In this document: piece by piece, positions 5,397 to 63,107 of the stretch
Numbering within the stretch: position 1 is the stretch's first letter
Layout: each line of letters starts with the position of its first letter
NCBI GenBank assembly: GCA_902594855.1
Contig: CACJNS010000002.1
Location: 18,003-82,002, forward strand
DNA length: 64,000 bases
Direction: 5' to 3'
From: an uncultured SAR86 cluster bacterium
Lineage (GTDB): Bacteria > Pseudomonadota > Gammaproteobacteria > Magnimaribacterales > AG-339-G14
Made by a program: the position numbers and the translations under genes
The notes under the pieces: generated by a model
What the model was told of the DNA's origin: nothing
Seen by the model: only the letters and a program-made list of their open reading frames with translations
Database searches by the model: none

Positions 5397-5429
5397 ACTA
5401 GAATTATGATATCTTAAATTCCTATATTT

Positions 5430-6927: not shown

Positions 6928-7089
6928 TTAAAAAAAGTTATACCAAATTACCGATACTAGAAAACCTAAAAAGCTTAATTGTAAAGACAGCCACCATCTT
7001 TTCTTAGGATCGATACCCTTGAAAATAAAAGTTGTTGCGTATGCGATTACATAAAGAGCCAGCCAAGTTAGAAGAAGATTAATGACCAT
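6928..7089 (-). CDS. small two-helix membrane protein, 53 aa (not in the ORF track)
   Basis: Manual translation MVINLLLTWLALYVIAYATTFIFKGIDPKKRWWLSLQLSFLGFLVSVIWYNFF*. ATG overlaps the dapD stop (TAATG) and the ORF fills the whole gap. Confidence 0.75.
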   Translation of the reverse strand: MVINLLLTWLALYVIAYATTFIFKGIDPKKRWWLSLQLSFLGFLVSVIWYNFF

Positions 7090-46279: not shown

Positions 46280-46996
46280 TTAAGTTAAATTTTCGCCTAA
46301 ATAAATTTGTTGAACGGTATTATTTTCTTTAATGCTGGAAGGATTACCCGATGCAATTATTTCTCCATTATTAATAACCGAAATATTGTCACAAATATCC
46401 ATTGTTGCTTGAGCATTGTGATCACTTATAACGACACCGACATTTTTGGCACGAAGTTTTGAAATAATATTTTTGATTTCATTTATTGTTAATGGATCAA
46501 TCCCTGCAAAAGGTTCGTCTAATAAAATAAATTTAGGTTCAAGTGCAAAAGCTCTGGCTATCTCAAGTTTTCTTCTTTGGCCGCCCGAAAGATTTTCGGA
46601 GATTTGTTTTTCTAAACTAAGAAGATCAAATTCTTTCATTATGCTTGTATATTTATCTTCTATTTCAATATTTTTGAATTTAGTCTGCAGGGCAGCTTTA
46701 ATATTATCTGCAACTGATAGTTTTCTAAAAACAGATGGTTCTTGTGGCAAATAAATTATCCCTTTTGAAGCTCTAAAAGAAATATCCCTGAAAGTAATAT
46801 CGTATTCATCAAGAAAAATTTTTCCTGAGGTAGTGATCTCCAAACCAGAGATTAAAGAAAATAAAGTAGTTTTCCCTGCACCGTTAGGTCCCAGTAGACC
46901 AAATACTTCAGAGCTTCTTATTTGAAGATTGATCCCGTGTAAGATTTCTTTTTTCTTAAAGCTTTTTTTAATATTTTTGAGTTCAAGAGTTTTCAC
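46280..46996 (-). CDS. lptB: LPS export ABC transporter ATPase LptB
   Basis: GPNGAGKTT, YLPQEPSVFRKL, LSGGQRR, DEPFAGIDP and SDHN motifs. Confidence 0.95.
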   Translation of the reverse strand: MKTLELKNIKKSFKKKEILHGINLQIRSSEVFGLLGPNGAGKTTLFSLISGLEITTSGKIFLDEYDITFRDISFRASKGIIYLPQEPSVFRKLSVADNIKAALQTKFKNIEIEDKYTSIMKEFDLLSLEKQISENLSGGQRRKLEIARAFALEPKFILLDEPFAGIDPLTINEIKNIISKLRAKNVGVVISDHNAQATMDICDNISVINNGEIIASGNPSSIKENNTVQQIYLGENLT

Positions 46997-47702
46997 TTTT
47001 GATCCTCAAATTTTTCGAATTTAAAATGCTGTTATTTTCATAGTCAAAAACGATATCTGCACCAGAGATATTTTTCCCATCAATATAAATGCTTGATGTT
47101 CCAGAAAGATATAAAAGCTTTCTTTTTAAATCTATTTTAATTTCATTAGAAAGCCCTTTAAAAATATTCTTTTTAGCAAAACTTATAGGATTTCCAGACA
47201 CAGAAATCAATTCATCAGACAAAGAAACTTCTTTCCCTGAAAAGGTAATATCATTGTGGTTCAGATTCAGATTATTTGAACTTAAATATTCTTTATCAAT
47301 ATCTACAAAAACTTTTTCTGCAAAAAGCTCTATCTTTTCTTTATCTTTGATAAGGTTCACATTTATTTTTTCTGATAGATCAAACTGATTACTCTCAAAG
47401 AAAAAAACACCCTTATTTGCAGACAAGTTTACTAGATAGCTATCTTTATTATTTATTTCAATTTTAGGTTTGAAGATTGATAAGTTATCGGAATTAGAGA
47501 GAGCATTAATCATCTCGCTTTCGATGGTGTAAAGAATTTCTTTATTCTTTGAAGAAGCTCTAATTTCAATTTCTTTTGCATTGAAAATTGAAGAATTATT
47601 TTCTTTTGAGGAAAGAGACTCATTTTCAATTGTTATAAAAAGAAACGAGCCTGTTAGCGCTAATGCTAGGACACAATAAACAATTAATCTCCATCCCATC
47701 AA
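46983..47702 (-). CDS. LptC-like protein with an LptA-like C-terminal half (apparent fusion)
   Basis: N-terminal TM plus LptC-like jellyroll, then SGNPISF...LYLSG...ISGADIVFD resembling the LptA C-terminus. Sole gene between kdsD and lptB. Confidence 0.7.
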   Translation of the reverse strand: MMGWRLIVYCVLALALTGSFLFITIENESLSSKENNSSIFNAKEIEIRASSKNKEILYTIESEMINALSNSDNLSIFKPKIEINNKDSYLVNLSANKGVFFFESNQFDLSEKINVNLIKDKEKIELFAEKVFVDIDKEYLSSNNLNLNHNDITFSGKEVSLSDELISVSGNPISFAKKNIFKGLSNEIKIDLKRKLLYLSGTSSIYIDGKNISGADIVFDYENNSILNSKNLRIKSENS

Positions 47703-48667
47703 AATACTCTTGATTCATTCAACTCATGCATCCTTATGACACCAATAACTTTTTTTTGATTTTTTACAACCAAGCTATAGATTTTATTCTTGGACATGAT
47801 CTCTCTAGCTAAGTAGGCATTTTTATTATGCTCAATGCTTTTAAAAGATTTTGTCATTACTTTTGATATTGATAAATTTCTTATATCGATTTTTTTATTA
47901 AGAGTTCTTCTCAAATCACCATCAGTGAAAATTGCATTAATGGTTTGTTTTGAATTTTTAACTAAACAAAACCCTAAGCCAAATTGTGTAATGACTTTAA
48001 TTGCCTCTAAGATAGAAGTATTTTCTTTTACTATGGGTATTTCTTTAATATCAATCATTAGATCTTTCGCAAGGAGAAATCTTTTTCCTAATTTCCCGCC
48101 TGGATGATTCTCTGCAAATTCTTTTGGACTGAATCTATTATTTTTTAGTAATGCAATAGATATTGCATCCCCTAATATAAGCATGAATGAAGTGCTTGTT
48201 GTAGGTGCTAAATTATTTGGACAAGCTTCTTTATCTACTTTTGCTTCTAGATGTACCAGTGATTTTTTGGCAATAGAAGACTCTTTATTGCCAGTAATTG
48301 AAAGAATATTCTTTGTCTTTTTTATGAGGCCGCTAAGTATAAAAACAATTTCATCGGTTTCGCCTGAATTTGAAATTATCAAAATTCCATCACTTTTGGA
48401 AATAGCTCCAAGATCACCATGACTAGCTTCTGATGGATTAATAAAAAAAGAAGGAGTGCCAGTGCTTGATAAAGTAGAAGAAATTTTTGCAGCAATGTGG
48501 CCTGATTTACCAACACCCATCAAAACTAATTTTCCCTTAAGATTTTTTATATTATTGCAAATTGAATTGAAATCTTTTTTAGATAGACAATCTAAAGAGT
48601 GATTTATTGATGAAATTTCATCCTTAAAAGTTTTTTTAGCATGAATGAAAAAGTTATTTGTAGTCAT
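47699..48667 (-). CDS. kdsD: arabinose-5-phosphate isomerase
   Basis: GVGKSGHIA, EASHGDLG, EACPNNLAPTTS and HPGGKLG motifs, CBS pair. Confidence 0.95.
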   Translation of the reverse strand: MTTNNFFIHAKKTFKDEISSINHSLDCLSKKDFNSICNNIKNLKGKLVLMGVGKSGHIAAKISSTLSSTGTPSFFINPSEASHGDLGAISKSDGILIISNSGETDEIVFILSGLIKKTKNILSITGNKESSIAKKSLVHLEAKVDKEACPNNLAPTTSTSFMLILGDAISIALLKNNRFSPKEFAENHPGGKLGKRFLLAKDLMIDIKEIPIVKENTSILEAIKVITQFGLGFCLVKNSKQTINAIFTDGDLRRTLNKKIDIRNLSISKVMTKSFKSIEHNKNAYLAREIMSKNKIYSLVVKNQKKVIGVIRMHELNESRVF

Positions 48668-48711
48668 TATTTTTAAATTTCATTAAAGAACATATAGTAA
48701 ACTTAGAAACC

Positions 48712-49332
48712 ATGTTAGGGAAATTTGCTTCACAGATTAATTTTATATTAATTGCATTGCTGTTATTGATTCATCCTGTCTACGCAGATGATGAATTAGA
48801 TGATTATGTCAATAATCAACATGAAAAAATATTTTCATTCTTGAAGGAAAATACCGAAATTTTGAGTGAAAACAATCGAATTGATCTTATAGAGAAAGAA
48901 TTTTCAGGACTTATTTCTATAAGCGAAATATCCAAACGGGTTATGGGTAAGAAATATTTCATGAGCGCCTCAGAGGAACAAAGAAAGAGATTTACAAACA
49001 AATTCAAGGAGACTTTTTTTAACACTTATTCGAGTGCTTTAAGTAATTTAGAGGACCAAAAAATTGAAGTAATAGGTCATGCTCATCCAAAGGATAAGCC
49101 CAATGCAGCAATCGTAAGAGTGAGAATAACATCAGGTGAGGATTCATATGATCTCAATTATCAAATGATAAAAAAGAAAAATAGATGGGGAGTTATTAAT
49201 ATAATTTTCAGTGGAGTGAATATCGTTTCTATTTTTAAGACTCAATTCTCATCTCTTGCCTCTGAATATCAAAATGATCTTGATAAAGTAATTGATAACT
49301 GGGAAATTTCAGATATTAGGCAGAATTCTTAA
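48712..49332 (+). CDS. mlaC: phospholipid-binding periplasmic protein MlaC (Ttg2D)
   Basis: Signal peptide, SKRVMGKKY...ASEEQRKRF and W.VINIIFSGVNIVSIFKTQF; upstream of murA. Confidence 0.85.
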   Translation: MLGKFASQINFILIALLLLIHPVYADDELDDYVNNQHEKIFSFLKENTEILSENNRIDLIEKEFSGLISISEISKRVMGKKYFMSASEEQRKRFTNKFKETFFNTYSSALSNLEDQKIEVIGHAHPKDKPNAAIVRVRITSGEDSYDLNYQMIKKKNRWGVINIIFSGVNIVSIFKTQFSSLASEYQNDLDKVIDNWEISDIRQNS

Positions 49333-50598
49333 ATGGATAAATTGGTCGTCGAGGGCGGTTTTCAGCTTAATGGTTCTATCACATCATCCGGAGCAAAAAA
49401 TTCTGCCTTGCCAATCCTAGCTGCATCAATTCTCCTCGATGACACAATAATTATAAAAAATATTCCGCATCTTAATGATGTCACAACTATGCTTGAATTG
49501 CTTGGTTCTATGGGGGTCGATATGACTTTATCTGAAGACATGGAAGTGGAATTAGATCCATCAGGTTTGAATGATGTAGGTGCAAGATATGAATTGGTAA
49601 AAACAATGAGGGCATCCGTGCTAGTTTTGGGGCCTCTTTTAGCAAAAACTGGCTACGCTAAAGTAGCTCTTCCAGGCGGATGTGCAATCGGCAGTCGCCC
49701 AGTCAATCTTCACATTGATATTATGAAGAAAATGGGCTCACAAATTTTTATAAAAGATGGATACATAGAGGCGAAGTCTAAGGGTAGGCTTAAAGGTTGT
49801 GAGTTTCACTTTGATCTTGTAAGCGTGACTGCAACTGAGAATGCTCTTATGGCAGCATGTTTGGCAGAAGGAAAGACAATACTCAAAAACTGCGCAAGGG
49901 AGCCAGAGGTATCTGATCTAGCAAATTGTTTAAATTATTGCGGTGCAAAAATATCTGGAATTGGATCTGATGAACTGGTTATTGAAGGAGTAAAAGAATT
50001 ACACGGAACATCTTTCTCAATAATGCCTGATAGAATCGAAACTGCAACATATTTAGTTGCAACCACTATGACAGGCGGTGAGATTACTATTAAGAACTGT
50101 CAACCAAATTCCTTGGGCGCAGTAATTACTAAATTAGAAGAGGCTGGAGCTAATATAATTTGTAGTGATAATGAAATTAATTTAAAAATGAAAGAAGATT
50201 TACCAAAATCAACTTCTCTTAGCACCGCACCGTTTCCTTCATTTCCAACAGATATGCAAGCACAGTTCATAGCCCTGAATTCCATTTCCAATGGGTCTGC
50301 AACTGTTACTGAAACTGTATTTGAAAATAGGTTTATGCATGTAAATGAACTCATAAGAATGGGAGGAGACATAGAACTGAGGGGAAATACTGCCTTTATA
50401 AAAGGCAAAGGCAGGAAATTAATCGCAGCTCCGGTAATGGCTACAGATTTAAGAGCTTCAGCTAGTCTAGTCTTAGCAGGCCTTGTTGCCAAAGGAGAAA
50501 CTTTAGTTGATAGGATTTATCACATTGATAGAGGATACGAAAGAATCGAGGAAAAACTTAAGCTTTTGGGCGCAAAAATAGAAAGGATTTCAGCATGA
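49333..50598 (+). CDS. murA: UDP-N-acetylglucosamine enolpyruvyl transferase
   Basis: [23 protein letters not shown] (catalytic Cys retained), FPTDMQ and HIDRGY motifs. Confidence 0.99.
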
Positions 50599-51200
50599 TA
50601 TTAATTGGATTACCAAAAGGAAGAATCTATAAGGAAATAAGGCAGTTACTAGAGAACTCAGGAATACATTTAAAGGAAGATAAAAGAAAATTAATTTTTG
50701 GTTCCTCAGAAAAGAATATTCAGTTTTCTATTCTTCGAGGTTGGGACATTCCTAAGTTCGTAAGTTATGGAGCAGTTGATATTGGAATCGTTGGAAAAGA
50801 TGTTCTTTTGGAAACAGAAGAAGAAAATTTTTTTGAAGTCCTAGATCTAGAGATTGGGAAATGTAGATTATCTTTGGCTGCTAAAGAAAAAAAAGTCAGT
50901 GAATTAGCTGGTTCTACTATAGCCTCAAAATTTCCCAAAGAAACAAATAATTTTCTATCAGAAAATTTTATAGATGCTGAAATAATTGAGTTGAAAGGAT
51001 CTATTGAAATTGCTCCTATTTTGGGAATATCGGACTATATTGTTGACTTAGTTAATACAGGCAATACTCTGAAAGAAAACGGATTGAAGGAACTTAAAGT
51101 TATAAAGGAGATCTCGACTAGACTGATTGTCAATAAATCAAAATTTAGAACAAAAAATAAAGAAATTAAAAAATTTATTCAAAGGATTAAGAGTGATTAA
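50595..51200 (+). CDS. hisG: ATP phosphoribosyltransferase, short form
   Basis: [20 protein letters not shown] and DLVNTGNTL motifs; no C-terminal regulatory domain. Confidence 0.95.
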
Positions 51201-52482
51201 AAAGATCGAAAGCCATTATTTAGAAGATTATTTAGTAAAAGAAAAAAATCTTCGAAATGAAATCACCGTCACAGATGTTGTAAGAGAAATAATTCAAGAA
51301 GTCAAAGACTATGGAAACGAAGCATTACTTAAATTTATAAATAAACATGAAGGAAAAAAACTTAAATCTATTGATGAAGTTTTATTTAATCAAGATTTTT
51401 TAGAGGATAAGTTCAATTCCTTGAGAGATAAAGATAGAAATATGTTGATCTACATGGCTGAAAGAATAGAAAAATTTCACAATAACGATATTAGATTATC
51501 TGAAGAGCTTGAAGATGACACGGTAGAAAAGTATGGATATTTTTTGAGGCCTATAGATAAAGTAGGCTTGTATGCTCCGGGAGGAAAAGCGCAGTATCCT
51601 TCTTCTGTTCTCATGACGGGTGTTTTAGCTAAGTTAGCAAGAGTTAATGAGATAACCGTTATGTTTCCTGGAAACATTGATGACTTGAATCTTATGTTTG
51701 CGGCTTCTCATTTAATCGGAGCAAAAAGTGTTTTAAATTCTGGTGGGGCGCACACTTTAGCTGCTGTTGCATTCGGGACTGAGTCCATAGGAAGAGTTGA
51801 TAAAGTATTTGGACCAGGAAATAGCTATGTTTCTGAGGCAAAAAGACAACTTTATGGCGAGGTAGGAATTGATTCTCTTAATGGACCATCAGAAGTTGCA
51901 ATTATTGTTGATGAAAACTCTTCAATTGAATATGCAGCGAAGGATTTTTTAGCTCAAGCTGAACATGGTGAGGACTCTAGGTGTTTTCTAATACATCTTC
52001 CAGGCTTTGATTTAAATCAGTTCAATAAAACGTTAAAAAAGAATCTATCAACATCAAAAAGAAAAAAAATTATCAATGAAGCTTTAAAAAATTGTTGCTC
52101 AATTGAAGCCTCATCATTAAAAAATGCTATTTCGTTATCGAATTTAATTATCCCTGAACACTTAGAAATTTTGATTGATGAAATTGATTTAAATCAGATG
52201 CCAGTAATCAAGGCCGGTGCAATTTTTATTGGAGCAGAGGCTTCTGCAGTAATGGGAGATTATTGTGCAGGACCATCACATGTTATTCCTACCGGGGGTC
52301 AAGGAAGATTTAGTTCACAAGTTTCATTGAATGACTTCTTTATAAAAACTTCCTACATTGTTACTTCAAAAAACTCATATAAAAAAAATGGGTACAAAAC
52401 GCTTCTCAGTGAGTCAATAAATATTGCTGAAAGCGAGGGTCTCTGGGAGCACGCTAATGCTCTAAAAGAGAGAGAGAATTAA
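51193..52482 (+). CDS. hisD: histidinol dehydrogenase
   Basis: YAPGGKAQYPSS, GPGNSYV, GPSEV, QAEH, PEHL and GDYCAGPSHV motifs. Start placed at GTG 51193 after AAGGA. Confidence 0.95.
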   Translation: MIKKIESHYLEDYLVKEKNLRNEITVTDVVREIIQEVKDYGNEALLKFINKHEGKKLKSIDEVLFNQDFLEDKFNSLRDKDRNMLIYMAERIEKFHNNDIRLSEELEDDTVEKYGYFLRPIDKVGLYAPGGKAQYPSSVLMTGVLAKLARVNEITVMFPGNIDDLNLMFAASHLIGAKSVLNSGGAHTLAAVAFGTESIGRVDKVFGPGNSYVSEAKRQLYGEVGIDSLNGPSEVAIIVDENSSIEYAAKDFLAQAEHGEDSRCFLIHLPGFDLNQFNKTLKKNLSTSKRKKIINEALKNCCSIEASSLKNAISLSNLIIPEHLEILIDEIDLNQMPVIKAGAIFIGAEASAVMGDYCAGPSHVIPTGGQGRFSSQVSLNDFFIKTSYIVTSKNSYKKNGYKTLLSESINIAESEGLWEHANALKEREN

Positions 52483-53259
52483 CTATCTTTTTGTTTCTTT
52501 AAGGATTTTAGAATAACTCTCTGATACAACATCAATTGGAATGGCAAAATTTAAACCTTGATTCCCACCAGTTGTCGATTCAATGAAATTAATTACGCCT
52601 AATAAATTTCCATTTGAATCAACCAACGCTCCACCAGAATTTCCAGGATTGATAGAAGCATCAGTCTGTATAAACGAACCTTGCTTGTTAATGAACTTCC
52701 TGCCGATTGCGGAAATTATTCCCATGGTGACTGATTGTCCAAGCCCTTGAGGGTTACCAATCGCATAAACAGTTTCACCAATATTTATATCTTCTATTTT
52801 TCTTTTTCTTTGAATCGGTGAAATATTTGCAGTTTTTTCTACTAATTTTAATACTGCTAAATCATTGTCTCTATCTATGCCTATAATTACAACTTCGTGA
52901 TTTGATCCGTCATAAAATTCAGCAAGAAGTTTTTGTTTCAATTTAATTGAATTATTCAAAACATGTAGATTAGTGATTACATGACCTTCATCATCAAAAA
53001 TTACTCCAGATCCATCAGGAAAAAAACCTGTTTTGATGACTTGTTTCCATCTTCTTAGGCCTAATGAAGGAGTTTTTTCTTGCCATTCTCTCCACCGACG
53101 AAGACTCCAAATATTTACAACAGATGATGAAGATTTTTCGAAGTTAAATCCTCTCGAAGAATATTCATTTCTATCTCCTAAACCTACCAAAGTTAGGAAA
53201 CCATACCCTGCAAAGGTTCCCAGTATTATCCATATAGATAGTGTGTAAAAAGAGCGCAT
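52483..53259 (-). CDS. membrane-anchored HtrA/DegS-like serine protease lacking a PDZ domain
   Basis: N-terminal TM, GSGVI, TNLHV (His), DLAVLK (Asp) and NPGNSGG (Ser). Ends shortly after NFAIP; degS/algW position next to rplM. Confidence 0.88.
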   Translation of the reverse strand: MRSFYTLSIWIILGTFAGYGFLTLVGLGDRNEYSSRGFNFEKSSSSVVNIWSLRRWREWQEKTPSLGLRRWKQVIKTGFFPDGSGVIFDDEGHVITNLHVLNNSIKLKQKLLAEFYDGSNHEVVIIGIDRDNDLAVLKLVEKTANISPIQRKRKIEDINIGETVYAIGNPQGLGQSVTMGIISAIGRKFINKQGSFIQTDASINPGNSGGALVDSNGNLLGVINFIESTTGGNQGLNFAIPIDVVSESYSKILKETKR

Positions 53260-53275
53260 TTTTTATTATTCAGAG

Positions 53276-53314
53276 TTGTAAATTATAACCTCTCTAATGT
53301 ATCATTCACGCGCC
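53276..53314 (+). promoter_or_regulatory. promoter for rplM-rpsI with GC-rich discriminator
   Basis: TTGTAA (53276-53281), 18 nt, TATCAT (53300-53305), then TCACGCGCC. Confidence 0.65.
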
Positions 53315-53327
53315 TTTTACGTTAATT

Positions 53328-53756
53328 ATGGATACAAAATCTTACAAACTAGATTCACTTGATAAAGGTTGGTTGTTAGTAGATGCTTCCGACAAAACCT
53401 TAGGTCGTTTAAGCACTAACATTGCAAAGATTTTAATGGGGAAAAATAAACCTGAGTATACCCCTCATAATGACGTTGGAGACTATGTAGTTGTTATAAA
53501 TGCTGAGAAAATAAAAGTAACTGGAAATAAAAACGAGCAAAAAATGTATTACCGACATACCGGTTATCCTGGTGGAATAAAATCTCAAAATTTTAATGAC
53601 CTAATTGCTTCATATCCGGATAGAATAATTACCTCTGCAGTTAAAGGTATGTTGCCTAAAAATAAACTATCAAACTCAGTTATAAAAAAACTTAAAGTCT
53701 ATAAGGGAGAATCTCATCCGCATAGCGCTCAAAATCCTGTAAAACTCGAGATCTAA
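53328..53756 (+). CDS. rplM: 50S ribosomal protein L13
   Basis: [25 protein letters not shown] and GMLPK motifs. Confidence 0.99.
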
Positions 53757-53764
53757 AATAAAAT

Positions 53765-54157
53765 ATGAGCGATAATCAGTATTATTCAACCGGCAGAAGA
53801 AAAACTTCTACAGCCAGGGTTTATCTCAGTTCTGGCGGGGGCTCCATATTAGTTAACGATCTACCATTAGAAGAATATTTCGGTCGAGAAGTAGCTAGAA
53901 TATTGGTCAAACAACCAATTGAGCTAGTTGAGATGGTAGACAAATTCGACTTGAAAATTTATGTTTCTGGTGGTGGATATTTTGGCCAAGCAGGGGCTAT
54001 AAGACATGGACTCTCTAGGGCCCTTGTCAAATATGACGAATCTCTTAAGCCAGTTCTTAAAGAGGCCGGTTTCCTTACAAGAGATTCAAGAAAAGTAGAA
54101 AGGAAAAAGGTAGGTTTAAGAAAAGCTAGAAAAGCTCCTCAGTTCAGCAAAAGATAG
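53765..54157 (+). CDS. rpsI: 30S ribosomal protein S9
   Basis: [14 protein letters not shown] and [11 protein letters not shown]...QFSKR. Confidence 0.99.
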
Positions 54158-54162
54158 ACTTT

Positions 54163-54756
54163 ATGCAGCCAAAATCTCCTCCTAACCCAATAAGACGACA
54201 ATTACTAACCTCAATCACATCCTTGCTTGGGTTTGTGGGTGTTATTTTTGCAGCTATTCCTTTTCTAAGTGCATTCAAGCCTAGTGCTCGAGCTGAAGCT
54301 GCTGGAGCACCTGTAAAAGTTAATATTAGCAAGCTAAGTCCAGGAGAATTAATGACTGTGGAATGGAGAGGTATGCCTGTATTTGTTTACAAAGTCTCAA
54401 GCGAAGCTCAAAACGCTTTATCCGCAGATAAATCTAAATTAGCTGACCCTAATTCAGATCAACAACAACAACCTGAGTACGCACAAAACGATACAAGATC
54501 TAGAAAAAAGGGTATCGCCGTTGTAAAAGGAGTTTGTACTCATTTAGGCTGTGCCCCAAAGTTTTATCCAGAAGCCACCTCACAGGATTTTGATCCTAAT
54601 TGGCAGGGTGGTTTTTTCTGTCCATGCCATGGATCAAAATTTGATCTCGCTGGAAGAGTTTATGCCAATGTACCTGCCCCAACCAACCTTGAAGTCCCAC
54701 CTCATTATTTTGAGACCGATTCTACGTTGGTAATCGGTTCCGATGGAGCAAGTTAA
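54163..54756 (+). CDS. petA: cytochrome bc1 Rieske iron-sulfur subunit
   Basis: Tat-like RRQLL anchor; CTHLGC and CPCHGS boxes. Confidence 0.98.
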
Positions 54757-56009
54757 TGACAACTGATACTAGAACGAAACGTTTCCTTAGTTGGATAGAT
54801 TTTAGATTTCCTTTAACTGAAGTTTTCGAAAGGCATTTATCTAAATATCCTGCACCCACTAACCTCAATATTTGGTATCTCTTTGGATTTCTTCTTATTG
54901 TTGTATTGGCAATGCAAATTGTCACAGGTCTTTGGCTGATGATGAATTATACAAATTCAGCAGAAGAGGCTTTTTCTTCTGTTGAATATATCATGAGAGA
55001 TGTAGAGTATGGATGGCTTATCCGTTACATGCATGCTGCAGGAGCCTCAGCATTTTTTGCACTTATCTATTTGCATATGTTTAGAGGAATGATGTACGGA
55101 TCCTATCAAAAACCTAGAGAGCTGATATGGCTCGGAGGTTGGTTTACCTATCTCATTCTAATGGCTGAAGGTTTCACAGGCTATGTTCTTCCTTGGGGTC
55201 AAATGTCGTTTTGGGCTGCTCAAGTTATCATTTCATTGTTTAGTTCAATACCTGTTGTAGGAGAAGATTTGGCAACATGGATAAGGGGTGATTACTTGGT
55301 ATCAGGAATTACTCTATCAAGGCTATTTGCATTTCATGTAGTCCTTCTTCCAATATTACTAATTGCAATTGTTTTCTTTCATATACTTGCACTTCATGAA
55401 ATTGGTTCAAATAATCCAGATGGAATAGACGTTAAAAAACATCTTGATGAAGACGGAGTTCCATTGGATACAAAACCATTTTTTCCCTACGACATTAGTC
55501 ATGATATTTTTGCTCTCGGCGTATTCCTGATTATATTCTGTTCTGTGGTCTTCTTCTTTCCAACAGGTGGTGGGTACATTATCGAATATGTAAATTATGA
55601 GCCAGCTAATCCCCTTTCTACTCCAGCTCACATCGTTCCCTCATGGTATTACACTCCGTTCTATGCCATGTTGAGAGCTGTGGATTTCCCTTTATTCGGA
55701 CTAACTGCAAAATTTCTTGGGTTTGCCACTATGATGGCTGCAGTTGCTATCTTTGCTGTTCTACCTTGGCTTGATCGAAGCCCTGTGAAATCGATCAAAT
55801 ATAAAGGGATATTAAGTAAGACTTTCTTAGGAATCTTTGTGGTAAGTTTCTTTGCCCTTTGTTATCTAGGTATGGTTCCTCCCACAGAAACAAAAACACT
55901 GCTATCAAAAATTTTCACATTGGGTTATTTCTCATATTTTCTATTGATGCCAATTTATACAAGGATAGAGAAATGCAAACCTGTTCCGGAGAGAGTAGCA
56001 GAAGCATGA
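54756..56009 (+). CDS. petB: cytochrome b
   Basis: [23 protein letters not shown] and FAFH motifs; PSWY variant of PEWY. Confidence 0.98.
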
Positions 56010-56668
56010 AGCTATTAGTTTTTTTGGCTTTTGCTTTTTTTTCAGGGCTATCTATTTCCGCAGGAGATTACAAATGCGGCTCAATTGAATGTTATGAATT
56101 CAGCCCTGATACAAAAGATAAAGAATCCCTTCAAAGAGGTCTTTCAGCATATATGAACTATTGTTATGGATGTCACTCTCTCAAATATTCACGTTACAAA
56201 AGAGTTGCCGAAGATCTCTCAATCCCTCTTGATATTTATGAGCAAAACTTGATTTTTGATGACTCTAAAATAGGTGACTTGATGCATATAAGTCTCAAGG
56301 AATCCAAGGCTATAGAGCTATTAGGAGCCAAACCTCCTGATTTGACTTTAGAAGCAAGATTAAGATCTCCCGAGTGGGTTTATACTTATTTAGATACTTT
56401 TTATGAGGACTCCTCTAGACCTTATGGAGTCAATAATAAAGTTTATGTAAATGTTTCCATGCCACATGTTTTGGAAGACATCCAGTTAGAATTATCTGAA
56501 GAGGAATACGATAGATATATTGCTGATATAACCAATTTTCTTACGTATGTTTCAGATCCATCAGCTGAAACCAGAAAACAGCTTGGTATATATGTTATCC
56601 TTTTTCTTTTAATCTTCACTGCTTTCGCTTATCTGGTTTATAGAGAGTTTAAAAAAGACTTAAAATAA
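56006..56668 (+). CDS. petC: cytochrome c1
   Basis: CYGCH heme motif, PPDL, SMPHVL and C-terminal TM. Start placed at ATG 56006 (ATGA overlap with petB). Confidence 0.96.
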
Positions 56669-56677
56669 ATTTATAAA

Positions 56678-57322
56678 ATGACAAGTTTATTAGGTAAAAG
56701 ATCATCCATGGTCTTATTTCATAATGAAATTGGACATCAAAGCCATAAAGTAAGAATAGTACTATCAGAAAAGGGTATAACCGCCGATCTTGAAGCTTTA
56801 GATCCTGAAAATCTTCCAAAAGAAATTCTAGAAGTTAATCCAAAAGGTTTTCTTCCTTTACTCATAGACAGAGAGTTAGCCTTGTATAAGTCTCAACTAA
56901 TTGTTGAATACTTGGATGAAAGATTTCCTCATCCCCCCTTGCTTCCTGTTTATCCTGTGGCAAGAGCTCAAACAAGATTAATTCTTCATAGAATTGAGGA
57001 AGAGTGGACTTATCATGTTGATATTCTGGAAGATGCATCTGCCACAACAGCAAAAAAGAATTCTTCAAGAAAGGAGCTCAAAAAAAATATAACAAATTCA
57101 ATGATGCTTTTTGATGGCTCTGAATACTTCCGAAGCGAGGAATTTTCCGTATTAGATGCAACAATCATTCCTATTTTGATTAGATTGAAATTCTTAGGCG
57201 TGGATATTCCCAACAATAAATCAACTAAAAATATGCATGAATACGTTGAGAGGATGGTTGAAAATGAGCTTATACAAGAGAGTTTAACGTTACGCGAGAG
57301 AGAATCTTTTTTTACCGATTAA
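56678..57322 (+). CDS. sspA: stringent starvation protein A
   Basis: SHKVRIVLSEKG and YLDERFPHPPLLPVYPVAR motifs. Confidence 0.95.
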   Translation: MTSLLGKRSSMVLFHNEIGHQSHKVRIVLSEKGITADLEALDPENLPKEILEVNPKGFLPLLIDRELALYKSQLIVEYLDERFPHPPLLPVYPVARAQTRLILHRIEEEWTYHVDILEDASATTAKKNSSRKELKKNITNSMMLFDGSEYFRSEEFSVLDATIIPILIRLKFLGVDIPNNKSTKNMHEYVERMVENELIQESLTLRERESFFTD

Positions 57323-57323
57323 G

Positions 57324-58379
57324 TTAACCTTGCTTTACTCCGCTAAGATCTATTCTGAATTTTAAAGGATTAGAATAAAGAAAATTCTCTTTAATTTCAT
57401 ATTTACCAAGTAATCCAGAAAAATTAGAAGATCTGCCTCTAATTTTTGCTCCAAAGAAGAAAATATCAAAGCCAGCCGAAAAAGCAATTTTCTCGTTAAC
57501 ATTCAATTCAGGAATGATTTTTTCAAAGATATTCATTCTGTTTAATAATACTGGATACTCAAGGCCTTCAACTTTATTAAGTTCGCTTAAGCTTAATTCT
57601 GAATTCCAAACATCTAATGATTTAGGGTAAGTTAAAACCTCAGCATCAAAAATTAAATTATAGCGAATAGCAGGAATAATTCTTTTTGTTTCATTCGGTA
57701 AGGCATTGATAAATATTTTATCAATATCCTTTCTTTTTCGAGGAGAGAAGTTAATTTTTTCTTTTAAAACATTCCTCAAGGACCTTGCTCTTTCATTGCT
57801 TAAATTGATTTCAAAGTAATCAGCAATTTTTTGTTCGTAGTCCGAACTGTTCCTTAAAGACAAGGTATTTTCATTATTTTTTGAATTTCGATTTTTTCCA
57901 GTAATGAGAAGAGATTTTTCATCGATCTGGATAAACTCATTTTCACTATTTATATTTATCGATGTGAAGAGAGAATTTCTTGATAATCTTCTTTTGCACT
58001 TTCTGTAGAATTCTGAATTGATATCACTCACTAGTATTAAATTGAAACCCCTGGCTTTAATTATGCTGCAATCACTTTCTTCATTAAAAGCGATAAATGA
58101 GAGTTTCGACTTCATAGAATCTTCATTAGAAAAAAACCCAAACTCTATACCTTTCATGAAAGAAGAAATGAGTTTTTCATCAATCTCTTCCGAGAAGAAA
58201 ATATGATAAGAAGAAGAGAAGTTTTTATTTTTATAGAAATTTTCAACAAAAGACTGCGAAAAGTTACTATCGATGATTTGCTCTTTATCTAATAAAACTT
58301 TATCTTCCATATTCATAGAACAGTGAAATAGGAATACACTGATGATTAAAAAATAAACTTTTTTCAAATAGTCTTTCAT
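57324..58379 (-). CDS. shortened LpoA/LppC-family outer-membrane lipoprotein
   Basis: Lipobox-like LFHC; SPRKRKDIDKIFI...KRIIPAIRY resembles the LpoA C-domain; divergent from rsmI. Confidence 0.65.
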   Translation of the reverse strand: MKDYLKKVYFLIISVFLFHCSMNMEDKVLLDKEQIIDSNFSQSFVENFYKNKNFSSSYHIFFSEEIDEKLISSFMKGIEFGFFSNEDSMKSKLSFIAFNEESDCSIIKARGFNLILVSDINSEFYRKCKRRLSRNSLFTSININSENEFIQIDEKSLLITGKNRNSKNNENTLSLRNSSDYEQKIADYFEINLSNERARSLRNVLKEKINFSPRKRKDIDKIFINALPNETKRIIPAIRYNLIFDAEVLTYPKSLDVWNSELSLSELNKVEGLEYPVLLNRMNIFEKIIPELNVNEKIAFSAGFDIFFFGAKIRGRSSNFSGLLGKYEIKENFLYSNPLKFRIDLSGVKQG

Positions 58380-58382
58380 AAA

Positions 58383-59219
58383 TTGCCTACATTATATTTA
58401 GTCAGTACACCGATAGGAAATAAATTAGATGTTTCTTTAAGGGCTCAAAATGTGCTTTCCTCAGTTGATGTCATTCTATGCGAGGACACAAAAAAATCGG
58501 GTATCTTTTTGAAAGATTTAGGCATAAAAAATAAATTACTCTCTTATCATGATCACTCGAATGTTTCGAAAATTAATTATTTCCTAAAGCTACTAAAAGA
58601 AGGCGCCTCTTTGGCCATAATCTCTGATGCAGGAACACCTTTAATATCTGATCCCGGATACGAATTAGTTGCTAAAGCCATTGATGAGAAAATTAAAGTT
58701 ACCTCAATACCAGGACCTTCTGCTGTTACTTCGGCTTTAATATCGTCAGGTTTACCAACAAGTTCTTTTGTATTTGAAGGTTATGCTCCAAAAAAAAAGG
58801 GTCAGCTAGAAACGTTCTTAAAAAATTTACAATATGAGATGAGAACTATCATTCTGTTTGAATCTCCAAAGAGGATAGAAAGATTGATGCAGATGATTGT
58901 AAAAATTTTAGGTCCTAAAAGGAAAGTATCCTTAGCAAAAGAGCTCACAAAGAAATTTGAGAGAGTCATAACAGATGAGGCTAAAGAAATTCATGAATTA
59001 ATAATAAAAGATGAAACTTTAAAAAAAGGTGAGATGGTTATAGTGATTGAAGGCTCCAAAGAGAAGCAACTTATTTTAGTCGAACATGAGAAAGTCCTCT
59101 TTAAAGAGATCCAAAAATTAAACGGAACCAAGGCAGCATCCAAAATTGTCTCAAAGATTTCCTCAAAAACCTCAAAAGAGATTTACTCAATTTTCAGCGA
59201 ATCAAAGAATGACAAATGA
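58383..59219 (+). CDS. rsmI: 16S rRNA C1402 2'-O-methyltransferase (TTG start)
   Basis: LYLVSTPIGN, CEDT, SDAGTPLISDPG, FESP and KELTKKFE motifs. Confidence 0.97.
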   Translation: MPTLYLVSTPIGNKLDVSLRAQNVLSSVDVILCEDTKKSGIFLKDLGIKNKLLSYHDHSNVSKINYFLKLLKEGASLAIISDAGTPLISDPGYELVAKAIDEKIKVTSIPGPSAVTSALISSGLPTSSFVFEGYAPKKKGQLETFLKNLQYEMRTIILFESPKRIERLMQMIVKILGPKRKVSLAKELTKKFERVITDEAKEIHELIIKDETLKKGEMVIVIEGSKEKQLILVEHEKVLFKEIQKLNGTKAASKIVSKISSKTSKEIYSIFSESKNDK

Positions 59220-59243
59220 GTCCAAATACTTATAATTAGCATC

Positions 59244-59574
59244 GAGCTGACCGGGTAATCGCTGTCAAATAGATAGAGGAAAGTCCGGGCTCCATAGAGA
59301 ATGATGCCAGATAACATCTGGGTGCTGCGAAGTAACGGATAGTGCAACAGAAAATAAACCGCCTTGTGTTAAAAGGTAAGGGTGAAAAGGTGCGGTAAGA
59401 GCGCACCAGACTTTTGGTAACAAAAGTCGTTGGCAAACCCCATCAGGAGCAAGACCAAATAGAGACCTGCTAATGTTTCTCGCATTAGGTCAGGGTAGGT
59501 TGCTAGAGGTTTATGGCAACATAAATCCTAGAGGAATGATTACCAATTACAGAACCCGGCTTATAGGTCAGCTC
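59244..59574 (+). ncRNA. rnpB: RNase P RNA, bacterial type A
   Basis: GAGGAAAGTCCGGGCTCC, AGTGCAACAGAAA, GGTAAGGGTGAAA, GAGCAAGACCAAATAG and ACAGAACCCGGCTTA; P1 is GAGCTGACC/GGTCAGCTC. Confidence 0.98.
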
Positions 59575-59620
59575 ACATAATAAATATCCTTAAAACCCTT
59601 ATATTTTGGGACTAAACCTC

Positions 59621-59649
59621 TTGACAGTGATTATACAAATGTCTAAAGT
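59621..59649 (+). promoter_or_regulatory. dcw (mraZ) promoter
   Basis: TTGACA (59621-59626), 17 nt, TAAAGT (59644-59649). Confidence 0.8.
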
Positions 59650-59690
59650 GTGCTGAAGTGCACATTTGTGTATCTATGTGTGTAAAAGGG
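59648..59690 (+). promoter_or_regulatory. MraZ operator: GTG direct repeats at a 10-bp period
   Basis: GTG at 59648, 59658, 59668 and 59678, and GGG at 59688; overlaps the -10 element and TSS. Confidence 0.8.
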
Positions 59691-59697
59691 GTCTTGT

Positions 59698-60180
59698 TTG
59701 ATGGCTATAGGACTTTATGGATACAGTAGTTTGGCATTGGATTCTAAAGGACGAATTGCAATGCCAGCAAAGTATAAAGAAGCTTTAAAAGAAGTTTCAG
59801 AGGGTTCTTTGGTCATTACTAGGGACCCACAATATCCTTCCTTAAGAATCTATCCAGGCAGTTTATGGAAAACCATATCGAAAGCTTTTGAAAACTTATC
59901 TGGCCTAGATTCAAAAATTAGATCTATTCAGTGGAATTTTCTTGGATATGCAAATTTAATTGATTTTGAAGTCAATGATCGGATGCAAATACTTATTCCT
60001 CAAAGCTTAAGAGATTACGCTCAATTAAAAGTTAAAGAAAAAGTATCTTTGATTGGTATGGGTCAGAAATTTGAAGTATGGAATGAAAAAAATTGGCTTG
60101 CAAAAGAGAAAGGTCAACAAATTCAAGGTGAAAAATTAGATATCGACTTACCTTCTAACGTCCAGGAGATCCCTTTTTAG
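59698..60180 (+). CDS. mraZ: division/cell-wall cluster transcriptional repressor MraZ
   Basis: LDSKGRIAMP, ILIPQSLRDYAQL and FEVW motifs; start TTG 59698 or ATG 59701. Confidence 0.92.
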   Translation: MMAIGLYGYSSLALDSKGRIAMPAKYKEALKEVSEGSLVITRDPQYPSLRIYPGSLWKTISKAFENLSGLDSKIRSIQWNFLGYANLIDFEVNDRMQILIPQSLRDYAQLKVKEKVSLIGMGQKFEVWNEKNWLAKEKGQQIQGEKLDIDLPSNVQEIPF

Positions 60181-60184
60181 CATC

Positions 60185-61039
60185 ATGTTCACTCATCAGC
60201 CAGTAATGATCAACGAAACTATTAAAAATTTAGTTCATGATCCTGCCGGCACTTATTTAGATTGTACTTTTGGCTTAGGGGGACATTCAAAAAAGATTTT
60301 AGAAAACCTTAACGATAATGGCCGATTAATTGCAATAGACAGAGACAAAGAAACTGTCTTGTATTCACAAAAAATAAAAGACAAAAGATTTCATTTTAAA
60401 AATCTAAATTTTTCAAAAATTGAAAGTTTAGATACAAGACTAGACGGTATCTTTTTTGATCTAGGGAATTCTTCTATGCAATTAGATGATCCAGAAAGAG
60501 GATTTAGCTTTCAAAAGGATGGTCCTCTTGATATGAGAATGAACAAAGAAGAGGAAATTACAGCAGAACAATGGATAAATACTGCAACAGAGAAAGAAAT
60601 AAGTGACGTCTTATTTCATTTGGGCGAAGAGCGAAAATCTAGGTTTTATGCCAGGAAAATTGTTGAATCAAGAAAAAAGACCAAGTTTAAAAGCACAGCA
60701 CAGCTTTCTTTATTTATTCAGAAATATAGCAGTTCACAAAAGCGTCATCCAGCAACTAATGTATTCAGAGCAATAAGAATGCATATAAATAATGAAATTG
60801 AAGAGATGATCAATGGATTTAAATCAGCAGCTTGCCTACTCAAGCAAAATGGAAAATTAATCATCATAAGCTTTCATTCCATAGAAGATAGAATAGCTAA
60901 AAACTTTCTCAGATCAGAGGAAGCAAAAAATCTTAATCTTAAAAAGCAAGGAAAGCCTATTAAGCCAACAAATAATGAAATTAAGTCTAATCCGAGATCA
61001 AGGAGCGCAATAATGAGAATTGCGATAAAAAATGTTTAA
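60185..61039 (+). CDS. rsmH: 16S rRNA C1402 N4-methyltransferase
   Basis: HQPVM, DCTFGLGGHS, QLDDPERGFSF, PLDMRM, SFHSIEDR and NPRSRSA motifs. Confidence 0.97.
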   Translation: MFTHQPVMINETIKNLVHDPAGTYLDCTFGLGGHSKKILENLNDNGRLIAIDRDKETVLYSQKIKDKRFHFKNLNFSKIESLDTRLDGIFFDLGNSSMQLDDPERGFSFQKDGPLDMRMNKEEEITAEQWINTATEKEISDVLFHLGEERKSRFYARKIVESRKKTKFKSTAQLSLFIQKYSSSQKRHPATNVFRAIRMHINNEIEEMINGFKSAACLLKQNGKLIIISFHSIEDRIAKNFLRSEEAKNLNLKKQGKPIKPTNNEIKSNPRSRSAIMRIAIKNV

Positions 61040-61310
61040 TCAAATGATATTGATATTTATTTTAGGATCTCTGATTTCTGCTTTTTTTAGTTCCTGCTTA
61101 GTTTTGAACAAGAATGCTAGTTACAAGCAATTAGTCTCAGAAAAGTATCTTTTAAACGACTATAAGTCAAAACTAGATGAGGAATCAGTTTATCTCAAGA
61201 ATAAGATATTAAATCTAACTTCTCACAATTCAGTAAAGGAAAAAACGGTTGACGAATATGGAATGATTTTGCCTGAATCCGTTCTTTTGATTCAAGGAGC
61301 AGAAAAGTGA
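61032..61310 (+). CDS. ftsL: probable cell division protein FtsL
   Basis: Single TM, coiled coil and YGMILP tail; immediately follows rsmH. Confidence 0.7.
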   Translation: MFNQMILIFILGSLISAFFSSCLVLNKNASYKQLVSEKYLLNDYKSKLDEESVYLKNKILNLTSHNSVKEKTVDEYGMILPESVLLIQGAEK

Positions 61311-61858
61311 AATTCTTAACTTTCATTGTAATGATTTTTTCTTCAACCTTTGTTTTATCCGAAGTTTTTGAAGACCCAAAACCTTTGTTTTCAAAACATA
61401 ATCCTAACTTTGTTGAATCATCTAAGGAAGTCAATTCTTGGCCAATAAAAAGATTGCATGTGAAAGAATTTCAACCTCTTGCTTTTTGGGGAAAAGACCA
61501 GATACTGACCCAATCTGGTCGCCTCCTCAAATTTAAAACAAAAGAAAATTTGAAGTTAGTTAATATTGAAGCAAACAGAAATAATATTGACTTTGTCTTA
61601 AGGTATTTTTTTGAGCTAAATCAAATTTTGAAAGGATCTAACTTGGTTCTTAATAGAATTCTAATTGAAGAGTTTGATTTAATGACCTTAGAGGATAATT
61701 CCGGCATAAGGTTTCACATGAATAAATCAAAAATAGAAATTCAATTAGAAAACCTTAAAACATTCCTGAAGAGCGAATACTTTAACAACATAAAAGATAC
61801 CTTTTCATATTTAGATTTAAGGTATCAAAACAAAGGAGCAATTGGGTTAAGGGATTAA
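61307..61858 (+). CDS. ftsQ: truncated FtsQ/DivIB (beta domain, most of POTRA missing; GTG start)
   Basis: WPIKRLHVKEFQPLAFW...SGRL and C-terminal YLDLRYQNKGAIG; directly upstream of ftsA. Confidence 0.8.
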   Translation: MKFLTFIVMIFSSTFVLSEVFEDPKPLFSKHNPNFVESSKEVNSWPIKRLHVKEFQPLAFWGKDQILTQSGRLLKFKTKENLKLVNIEANRNNIDFVLRYFFELNQILKGSNLVLNRILIEEFDLMTLEDNSGIRFHMNKSKIEIQLENLKTFLKSEYFNNIKDTFSYLDLRYQNKGAIGLRD

Positions 61859-61859
61859 T

Positions 61860-63089
61860 ATGGCCAGCAACGGATCAAATAACATCAGAGTAGGTATTGA
61901 CATAGGCACCTCGAAAGTCGTGTGTCTAATCGCTGAATATGTTGATCACGAATTACGAGTTATCGGCTTAGGAAGCCAAACTTCTCAAGGTTTAAAAAAC
62001 GGTGTGATTGTTGATATTGAATCAACTGTATCCGCAATAGAATCCGCGGTAAATGATGCAGAATTGATGTCTGGAAAACAAGTTACATCAGCTTTTGTAG
62101 GTATAAGTGGAGGTCATATAAATGGTTTAAATTCTGAAGGTGTTGTAGGTATTAAAGATAAAAAAGTCAAAGTTAGTGATGTTGATAGAGTCATCACTGC
62201 CGCACAAGCATATGCTATTCCAGATGACTCTCAATTGCTTCATGTTCTGCCAAGAGACTACATTATTGATCAACAAAATGGCATTAAAGAACCTCTTGGA
62301 ATGGCTGGCGTCAGACTGGAGACCAAAGTTCATTTAGTCACCTGTAACAGGAACTCTGCTCAAAACATATCCTCTTGTATGAAAGCTTGTGGTATTACTG
62401 TTGAAGGATTTGTTTTGGAGCAACTAGCGTCAAGTTACTCCGTCCTATCAGAAGATGAAAAAGAGCTGGGAACGTGTTTAATTGACATGGGCGGTGGAAC
62501 TTCAGACGTTGCAGTTTTTCAAAATGGAGCGATAAGTCATACAGCTAATATTCCAACTTCAGGCGATCATATTACTAAAGACATTGCTAGAGCGCTTCAA
62601 ACTCCAAGTATGCAAGCAGAAGAACTTAAGAAGAAGTATGGCTGTGCTTCAAGCTCGATAATTCATGAGAATGAAACAATTGAGGTTCCAGGTATGGCAG
62701 GAAGAAAAAATAAAATTTTCTCAAGAATGGCCCTAGCCAGTGTAATAGAGCAAAGGTATTTGGATATTTTTGGCTTAATAAAACAAAAACTTAACTTATC
62801 TTCTTTAGAAAATAATATTCCCGCTGGGATTGTAATCACAGGTGGAACATCCAGAATGGAAGGAGTAGCTCAATTAGCAGAGGAAGTTTTTAATGCTCCT
62901 GTTCGTATTGGTTCGCCATCAGGATTGATAGGATTGAGCGATATTTTAAGGAATCCAATATATGCAACTGCTGTAGGGTTGGTTTTATATAGCCAGAAAT
63001 CACAAGAAGAAGACCATATGAACTATCTGTTCATGAAAGATAAGAACATTTTTAACAAAGCTTTTAGATGGATCCAAAACAATTTCTAA
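61860..63089 (+). CDS. ftsA: cell division protein FtsA
   Basis: GIDIGTSKV, IDMGGGTSD and VITGGTSRMEG motifs, C-terminal amphipathic helix. Confidence 0.98.
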   Translation: MASNGSNNIRVGIDIGTSKVVCLIAEYVDHELRVIGLGSQTSQGLKNGVIVDIESTVSAIESAVNDAELMSGKQVTSAFVGISGGHINGLNSEGVVGIKDKKVKVSDVDRVITAAQAYAIPDDSQLLHVLPRDYIIDQQNGIKEPLGMAGVRLETKVHLVTCNRNSAQNISSCMKACGITVEGFVLEQLASSYSVLSEDEKELGTCLIDMGGGTSDVAVFQNGAISHTANIPTSGDHITKDIARALQTPSMQAEELKKKYGCASSSIIHENETIEVPGMAGRKNKIFSRMALASVIEQRYLDIFGLIKQKLNLSSLENNIPAGIVITGGTSRMEGVAQLAEEVFNAPVRIGSPSGLIGLSDILRNPIYATAVGLVLYSQKSQEEDHMNYLFMKDKNIFNKAFRWIQNNF

Positions 63090-63107
63090 TTTAAATAAGG
63101 AGGGACT

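Follow-up and report, generated by a model that had tools for sequence, protein, structure and literature searches.

SAR86 bacteria (Magnimaribacterales) are abundant, streamlined and fast-evolving marine gammaproteobacteria, and their first isolate, HIMB1674, has cells of 0.46 x 0.66 um and a genome of 1.62 Mb (PMC11582366). SAR86 genomes are small, at ~1-1.7 Mb, and the literature describes a "rapid evolutionary clock." In the isolate paper, 28 of 280 gammaproteobacterial marker genes were scored as missing from SAR86, including FtsQ_C, SspB, LolA, LolD and FtsY, and MurE and TolB were scored as present (PMC11582366). No LptA/OstA, POTRA or LppC marker is among those scored in the supplementary marker table of that paper, and a keyword search of its main text did not find "envelope," "peptidoglycan" or "outer membrane." A separate body of work has established that systems crossing the envelope must match the distance between the inner and outer membranes, and the length of Lpp has been manipulated in Escherichia coli and Salmonella (PMC5736177, PMC8824477, PMC5771553). 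Here we analyze a 64,000-nucleotide stretch from an uncultured SAR86 bacterium (GenBank assembly GCA_902594855.1, contig CACJNS010000002.1, positions 18,003 to 82,002), referred to below as the window, which encodes several envelope machines in shortened form: a DegS-like protease, FtsQ, an LpoA-like lipoprotein, cytochrome c1 and the lipopolysaccharide (LPS) transport (Lpt) bridge. An earlier note on this DNA had taken such shortening as a sign of a thin periplasm. We consider it rather more probable that streamlining across the whole lineage removed accessory and regulatory periplasmic modules, together with neighboring accessory genes, and kept the catalytic and core-binding modules.

The window has a G+C content of 35%, and its genes are tightly packed, with numerous overlaps of start and stop codons. 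They are ordered lptB-lptC-kdsD, mlaC-murA-hisG-hisD, degS/algW, rplM-rpsI-petABC-sspA, lpoA and rsmI-rnpB-mraZ-rsmH-ftsL-ftsQ-ftsA-ftsZ, an order that we take to be collinear with genes PA4461-PA4407 in Pseudomonas aeruginosa. By comparison with the fetched E. coli loci, lptA, kdsC, mlaFEDB and sspB are gone from the corresponding places, and the order of the dcw blocks has changed; judged against the gene order that we assume for P. aeruginosa, hisC, yraN and diaA have presumably gone from the neighborhood as well. In being small, low in GC and dense, and in having lost regulatory and accessory genes, SAR86 matches the streamlining already known from marine oligotrophs (SAR86 itself and SAR11).

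The conservation of these features was assessed by scanning species-representative genomes with the DegS-like protein, which gave 28 SAR86 or SAR86-like loci. These form two clades by the identity of their DegS-like proteins to that of the window (85-96% and 43-54%), and the gene arrangement and all of the short forms are repeated across the 28 loci in both clades. The earlier note had regarded the truncations as independent of one another, a view that does not survive this comparison: the losses are old, are shared by the two sampled clades and are not independent recent events in this genome, and the deletions would date back to an ancestor that the sampled SAR86 clades had in common. That frameshifts or cut open reading frames (ORFs) in the window had produced the short forms is extremely improbable. 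Related long-read metagenome contigs, which are polished and 0.9-1.1 Mb long, do carry apparent frameshifts (ftsZ, ftsI and murE are split in L043 and L044, and several calls in L037 are shortened), and gene lengths read from these three contigs need care for that reason, but the lengths are identical in dozens of independent assemblies, from single cells as well as metagenomes, and we rejected an assembly artifact on these grounds. The LptC-like protein of the window, for example, has 173 database relatives, and all but one of the 120 listed are 238 aa long (identity, 79-95%).

The clearest case is the DegS/AlgW-like protease. The PDZ domain of DegS is an inhibitory sensor, and E. coli DegS without its PDZ domain is an engineered protease that acts independently of the signal. 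The window protein, whose gene sits at what we take to be the algW position of P. aeruginosa, has a hydrophobic N terminus followed by a complete trypsin-like domain that reaches residue 255-257 of 258, and the match to the protease domains of DegS, AlgW and DegP extends over residues 83-255. Trypsin_2 (PF13365) is matched over the full model (100.8 bits), and the TNxHV, DLAV and GNSGG motifs of the His-Asp-Ser triad are kept, as in other HtrA protease domains. No PDZ domain was found by Pfam, profile or PDB-alignment searches, so that the full DegS/AlgW architecture is incomplete; the DegS profile TIGR02038 gives 161 bits (cutoff, 423), with coverage of positions 80-250 of 351 only. The protease domain ends ~3 residues before the C terminus and the stop codon adjoins that of hisD, which leaves no room for a PDZ domain; the earlier note was right in listing DegS without one. 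Every SAR86 locus with an intact gene encodes a protein of 256-261 aa. Judged by its sequence, the window protein is a PDZ-less member of the HtrA family, comparable to the PDZ-deleted E. coli DegS and to the chloroplast protease Deg5 (PDB 4ic5), which likewise have an HtrA protease domain with His-Asp-Ser motifs and no PDZ domain. It also retains a DegS-like N-terminal membrane anchor, and the PDZ-less form is natural and lineage-wide in SAR86, whereas in E. coli it is an engineered variant. The SAR86 DegS/AlgW protein has kept its anchor and an intact His-Asp-Ser protease and lost the inhibitory domain that senses outer membrane proteins, and by analogy it probably acts without the outer membrane protein signal.

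FtsQ follows the same pattern. Its POTRA domain is a recruitment and interaction module, and in the window protein only the last strand of this domain remains. The only domain detected is FtsQ_DivIB_C (PF03799; 24 bits, cutoff 21); residues 43-180 align to residues 113-255 of E. coli FtsQ, which comprise the last POTRA strand and the beta domain. The cytoplasmic tail is absent and the transmembrane segment begins at residue 3. Since the alignment begins at the last POTRA strand and the start codon of ftsQ overlaps the stop codon of ftsL, the loss of POTRA that had been suspected from the window can be accepted. The gene is an ftsQ ortholog by its position (ftsL-ftsQ-ftsA), with the incomplete architecture of a beta domain lacking a full POTRA domain, and its product has 183 aa in the clade of the window, compared with 166 aa in the second. 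FtsQ has retained the beta domain, the part to which FtsB and FtsL bind in E. coli and may bind in SAR86, and has lost POTRA. The adjacent FtsL-like protein is a different matter: it has 92 aa against 121 in E. coli, the missing part is the cytoplasmic tail, and the periplasmic part is of ordinary size (67 versus 64 residues).

The LpoA-like lipoprotein lies slightly under the threshold of Pfam LppC (PF04348; 28.5 bits against a cutoff of 28.8, E=7.8e-7), matching profile positions 375-489 of 563. An exhaustive profile search with it retrieved 309 homologs, bona fide LppC proteins among them. Homologs of 550-700 aa, which carry LppC positions 3-563 together with TPR repeats, align at a constant offset of ~+245 residues to the SAR86 protein, and from this offset we conclude that the N-terminal domain of LpoA is absent, in agreement with the earlier note. 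The protein is ~350 aa long across the SAR86 loci, with a conserved lipobox Cys. The lipobox in the clade of the window is unusual, reading LFHC with His at -1, and the second clade has a canonical one, LVGC or LTCC; lipidation of the window form is putative. Single-sequence and profile searches of the PDB gave no significant match for this protein or for the LptC-like protein, and the AlphaFold2 (AF2) model of the LpoA-like protein (pLDDT 42) was too poor for a fold search. When SAR86 alignments of the LpoA-like and LptC-like proteins, which are shallow (Neff ~1.4), were compared by hhalign with single E. coli LpoA, LptA and LptC sequences, the probability was at most 3%. The C-terminal domain that interacts with PBP1A in E. 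coli, and might do so here, has been kept and the TPR-like N-terminal domain lost. Immediately beyond it, sspA (56678-57324) is directly followed by the convergent lpoA-like gene; as the two adjoin, no sspB is present there, which agrees with the scoring of SspB as absent in the isolate paper (PMC11582366).

Short homologs of ~390-410 aa show that an LpoA without its N-terminal domain is not peculiar to SAR86. They score strongly against LppC (230-280 bits) over profile positions ~216-563 only, and one is annotated as [quoted passage not shown] The SAR86 protein shares their architecture, that of a lipoprotein with only the periplasmic-binding-protein-like domain, and is far more diverged (28.5 versus 230-280 bits).

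Cytochrome c1 has lost an internal segment rather than a domain. Relative to PDB 8smr_J, ~43 residues are deleted directly after the Met-ligand motif, with residues 35-160 aligning to positions 9-134 and residues 162-216 to positions 178-232, so the shortening that the earlier note had reported is genuine. The CYGCH and MP motifs and the C-terminal hydrophobic helix are retained within a petABC operon. Gene calls on related contigs give a protein of 220 aa, and the maximal ORF in the second clade encodes up to 232 aa.

In the canonical Lpt bridge, LptB2FGC is joined through LptA to LptDE. SAR86 resembles it in having lptB, lptF, lptG and an anchored Lpt jellyroll protein and departs from it in an operon without lptA, in which the anchored protein has 239 aa (~210 aa in the second clade) and a C-terminal half that is weakly LptA-like. 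Genes lptC and lptB share 14 nt, and no lptA lies between them at this locus in the window or in either SAR86 clade; nor is there a kdsC between kdsD and lptC here. With a hydrophobic N terminus, an OstA-like jellyroll and a position upstream of lptB, the anchored protein is recognizable as LptC (Pfam LptC PF06835, E=1.6e-7; TIGR04409, 38.7 bits, cutoff 38, residues 6-155). Residues 120-226 give a weak LptA match (E=1e-3), which scores far under the 71.7-bit cutoff and has residues in common with the LptC match. A profile search of the PDB returned seven matches, all below significance, of which six were to LptA with residues 139-222 aligned. The AF2 model (pLDDT 74.5) contains ~16 beta strands forming one jellyroll, and its only significant Foldseek matches are LptA, LptH and LptC. 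The earlier note had described an LptC-LptA fusion, for which two domains and ~300 or more periplasmic residues would be expected; with 239 aa in total and a single predicted jellyroll, the protein does not fit that description. As modeled, it is an anchored single-jellyroll Lpt protein that is LptC-like and then LptA-like in sequence. It has 238-239 aa in the clade of the window and 208-211 aa in the second clade (L023-L037; lptC at ~15593-16231), and in BLAST the alignment of the two forms stops after their first ~175 residues, beyond which ~65 C-terminal residues remain in the former and ~35 in the latter. The weakly LptA-like C-terminal extension is thus specific to the clade of the window. 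LptB served as a cytoplasmic control and is of full length. LptF is full length as well, and LptG, which the earlier note had listed as truncated, is only 6% shorter than its E. coli counterpart (339 versus 360 aa), with ~21 residues fewer in its periplasmic jellyroll and full coverage of the family profile. The lptCAB operon would thus have become lptC-lptB; the single anchored jellyroll may pass on LPS with no soluble LptA involved, or else lptA may be located in another part of the genome.

Table 1. Coordinates, lengths and supporting matches of features in the window
Feature	Position	Strand	Length and evidence
lptG, essentially full length	3982..5001	+	339 aa vs 360; whole family profile covered
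Putative LolB lipoprotein	32980..33495	-	171 aa; lipobox LSSC; position only (ispE-X, divergent to prfA)
lptB, LPS-export ABC ATPase, full length	46280..46996	-	238 aa; TIGR04406 289.9 bits, positions 2-237 of 239; E. coli ratio 0.99
Membrane-anchored Lpt beta-jellyroll protein (predicted)	46983..47702	-	239 aa; LptC-like N-half, weakly LptA-like C-half
kdsD, full length	47699..48667	-	322 aa; profile match and E. coli comparison
mlaC-family periplasmic lipid-binding protein	48712..49332	+	206 aa; Pfam MlaC 118.6 bits, positions 4-165 of 166; ratio 0.98
DegS/AlgW-like membrane-anchored HtrA protease without PDZ	52483..53259	-	258 aa; Pfam, profile and PDB alignments
Cytochrome c1	56006..56668	+	220 aa from likely start 56006; Pfam PF02167 81.5 bits, positions 9-216 of 219
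LpoA-like (LppC family) lipoprotein, C-terminal domain only, divergent to rsmI	57324..58379	-	351 aa; Pfam, profile search
RNase P RNA (rnpB), bacterial class A, between rsmI and mraZ	59243..59579	+	Rfam RF00010, 324 bits
Permuted dcw cluster mraZ-rsmH-ftsL-ftsQ-ftsA-ftsZ	59698..64000	+	Continues past the window end, which lies inside ftsZ
FtsL-like protein	61032..61310	+	92 aa; gene position, weak Pfam FtsL E=0.08, comparison with E. coli FtsL
FtsQ, transmembrane helix and beta domain	61307..61858	+	183 aa; FtsQ_DivIB_C, E. coli alignment

The earlier note had proposed that the periplasm is narrower and that the proteins spanning it were shortened in coordination. On this reading the Lpt bridge would be one jellyroll shorter, LpoA would be freed of its spacer and the periplasmic heads would be more compact. 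We regard this as unlikely. The Lpt and LpoA results are those that speak for it most directly: the canonical lptA site is empty in either clade, the anchored protein is predicted to have one jellyroll with a C-terminal half resembling LptA, which in E. coli is the component in contact with LptD, and ~245 N-terminal residues are absent from LpoA. The LptG jellyroll and cytochrome c1 are shorter as well (~21 aa and ~43 aa), and it is an established idea that periplasm width constrains machines spanning the envelope (PMC5736177, PMC8824477). However, the PDZ domain of DegS, the POTRA domain of FtsQ and the surface loop of cytochrome c1 are not spanning elements, short LpoA proteins are present in other Pseudomonadota, and lptA may be encoded elsewhere. 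The claim that the lost parts are spacers and sensors stands for the sensor PDZ domain, and a recruitment module (POTRA) has gone too, but most of the lost parts are not spacers, and only LptA and the LpoA N-terminal domain bear on geometry.

Whether shortening is biased toward the periplasm was assessed from length ratios for every window protein with an ortholog in E. coli K-12, a single distant reference. The 36 cytoplasmic proteins have a median ratio of 0.99 (summed ratio, 0.972) and the three integral inner membrane proteins a median of 0.98 (summed, 0.991), as against a median of 0.80 and a summed ratio of 0.801 for the 10 periplasm-exposed (envelope) proteins, or 0.756 when the E. coli total includes LptA. 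Envelope ratios are lower than cytoplasmic ones (one-sided Mann-Whitney test, p=0.012), and 6 of the 10 envelope proteins but only 2 of the 36 cytoplasmic proteins have a ratio below 0.85 (Fisher p=5e-4). Loss is thus concentrated in periplasmic proteins, as had been claimed, at least in the window (summed ratios of 0.80 and 0.97). Divergence by itself does not explain this, since cytoplasmic proteins at only 23-34% identity (HolC, DapD, TruB, HisD, FolP, IspE and PrmC) keep ratios of 0.94-1.08. The companion claim that cytoplasmic proteins are of ordinary architecture agrees with their median ratio but fails in particular cases: IF2 (22678-25032) has 106 aa fewer than its E. coli counterpart, with the N-terminal region before residue ~130 hardly alignable, RbfA (25029-25346) has lost a C-terminal tail of ~28 aa, and DapD lacks ~45 N-terminal profile positions. 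Lesser trimming is seen in MurF and MurD (0.91 each) and in RsmH (0.91). Conversely, not every envelope protein is short: MlaC, LptF, the core of MreC, the Rieske protein, FtsI, and FtsH, including its periplasmic domain, are of normal size. The envelope bias in this window sample is real and rests on four or five genuine losses.

These figures bear on the possibility that E. coli is an atypical yardstick, that SAR86 domains or genes are present but unrecognized and that the shortening is partly illusory, to which we would give little credence. The deficit of MreC is an E. coli-specific C-terminal tail, its core being normal in size, and that of FtsL is, as noted above, a cytoplasmic tail. HisG is a normal short form and was set aside together with these two contested proteins in a sensitivity test, in which significance fell to p=0.05. 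Recognition is also imperfect: the LptC, FtsQ and LpoA-like proteins of the second clade score under Pfam thresholds, and the isolate paper scored FtsQ_C and LolA as missing (PMC11582366), although FtsQ_DivIB_C is detectable here. These subthreshold scores may explain why that paper lists FtsQ_C, LolA, LolD and others as missing. The key cases, however, are limited by physical space, in genes that adjoin or overlap, and not by detection, and the Pseudomonas proteins in the PDB agree with the E. coli lengths (AlgW, 389 aa; FtsQ, 287 aa; cytochrome c1, 233 aa), so that these and the family profiles give the same lengths and boundaries.

The absences of domains and genes, their conservation across SAR86 and their periplasmic bias in the window are the observations that an explanation has to accommodate, and the proposed streamlining of accessory and regulatory modules across the lineage probably does so best. 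At each absence the genes overlap or adjoin, and there is therefore nowhere for a PDZ domain, a POTRA domain, an LpoA N-terminal domain or lptA at these loci. Each core module of the envelope machines would have been kept, and neighboring accessory genes (kdsC, mlaFEDB and sspB) would have been dropped as well. Extracytoplasmic proteins generally evolve faster, and cheaper ones are selected for; we infer that selection for economy, the loss of regulation and this faster evolution, rather than membrane spacing, gave rise to the bias. The simplification of envelope biogenesis that the earlier note had proposed does appear to have taken place, given that the losses of domains and genes are conserved across SAR86.

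Several points weigh against this explanation. Streamlining alone does not predict that loss should fall ~7-fold harder on periplasmic than on cytoplasmic parts, and the bias itself comes from 10 envelope and 36 cytoplasmic proteins in one window, measured against one distant reference, with the drop to p=0.05 described above. The losses of LptA and the LpoA N-terminal domain, which are spanning parts in E. coli, fit a narrowed periplasm equally well, and the bias of shortening toward envelope proteins is also in keeping with it. Finally, the absences apply to these loci, and lptA, mlaFED, a PDZ-bearing DegP or DegQ, and RseA/sigma-E may be encoded elsewhere in the genome.

A coordinated adjustment to a narrow periplasm is nevertheless harder to reconcile with the normal size of MlaC, LptF, the MreC core, FtsI and the periplasmic domain of FtsH. 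Cells of 0.46 x 0.66 um are not extreme, and cell size is the sole dimension given in the isolate paper (PMC11582366). According to observations cited in a modeling paper, the periplasm may be large in SAR11, a still smaller oligotroph; that an oligotroph has small cells does not mean that its periplasm is thin. The full form of the proposal would have a bridge without LptA in which the hybrid jellyroll, LptC-like toward LptF/G and LptA-like toward LptD, contacts LptD directly, an LpoA that reaches PBP1A without a spacer, and distances from inner to outer membrane and from outer membrane to peptidoglycan substantially below those of E. coli, a combination that we find decidedly doubtful. The studies of periplasmic rulers changed Lpp length by experiment, and a coordinately shortened set in a natural lineage is shown neither there nor here.

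The idea of periplasmic rulers (PMC5736177, PMC8824477), the streamlining of SAR86 and its "missing" envelope markers were already known. The isolate paper scores markers as present or absent, and domain-level losses, their concentration in the periplasm and an lptCAB operon without lptA are not described there (PMC11582366). Among the papers that could be searched, no directly relevant literature was found on POTRA-less FtsQ, on Proteobacteria lacking LptA or on protein shortening in streamlined marine bacteria, and within that scope the domain-level description is new, comprising the PDZ-less DegS, the POTRA-less FtsQ, the LpoA with a C-terminal domain only, lptC-lptB without lptA and the permuted dcw cluster.

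The dcw cluster had been described as collapsed, an impression that arose from the position of the window end. The genes that seemed to be missing follow ftsZ just beyond it: on two contigs of ~0.9 Mb with an identical FtsA and the same upstream order, ftsZ is followed directly by ftsI-murE-murF-mraY-murD-ftsW-murG-murC (L043, 11249-21230; L044). The cluster is permuted rather than reduced, with the ftsQAZ block preceding the ftsI..murC block, and all of its genes but ddl were seen; ddl was not seen within the stretch ending at murC. FtsI has 542 aa (ratio to E. coli, 0.92), and MurE is also scored as present in the isolate paper (PMC11582366). The rsmI-rnpB-mraZ arrangement upstream is presumably shared with Pseudomonas.

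Two further envelope genes had been singled out. MlaC, called an orphan, has a full-length domain, and mlaF, mlaE, mlaD and mlaB were not found beside it in the window or at any of the SAR86 loci examined in either clade, so the description is correct at the level of the locus. The supposed diverged LolB is indeed a lipoprotein with a lipobox, encoded where lolB would be expected; Pfam, NCBIfam and BLAST gave no match for it, and the homology implied by that name is not detectable, leaving position and lipobox as the basis of the putative assignment. Among the other genes, the hisG of the 50595-52482 region encodes the short form of 201 aa, a form that normally depends on HisZ. Read as its maximal ORF, hisD would have 74 nt in common with hisG; its true start probably lies downstream (429 aa on related contigs), and no hisC follows hisD in the window. 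DapD (7089-7976, minus strand) is of the long "gpp/actino" type and not of the E. coli type, covering profile positions 89-341 of 341 with a shortened N-terminal domain. The window also encodes a 354-aa beta-N-acetylglucosaminidase-like protein of the NagZ/GH3 type (36145-37209, plus strand) and a 162-aa RDD-family membrane protein (4998-5486, minus strand) whose gene overlaps the start of a dtpA-like peptide transporter gene.

The forms described here may account for the scoring of these SAR86 proteins as "missing" by marker gene tools. The most interesting component of the thin-periplasm hypothesis is a possible Lpt bridge without LptA. If lptA is not absent from the genome as a whole, SAR86 would be an unexceptional example of streamlining, if a neatly documented one; if it is truly absent genome-wide, SAR86 would possess a minimal Lpt bridge and offer a natural test of the coevolution of periplasm width and machine length. 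Were the full thin-periplasm hypothesis true, SAR86 would be a natural example of a whole envelope rescaled to a thinner periplasm. The SAR86 loci show in any case that parts of the envelope machines are dispensable in nature, namely the sensor PDZ domain of DegS, the POTRA domain of FtsQ, the N-terminal domain of LpoA, LptA within its operon and the Mla partners at their locus.

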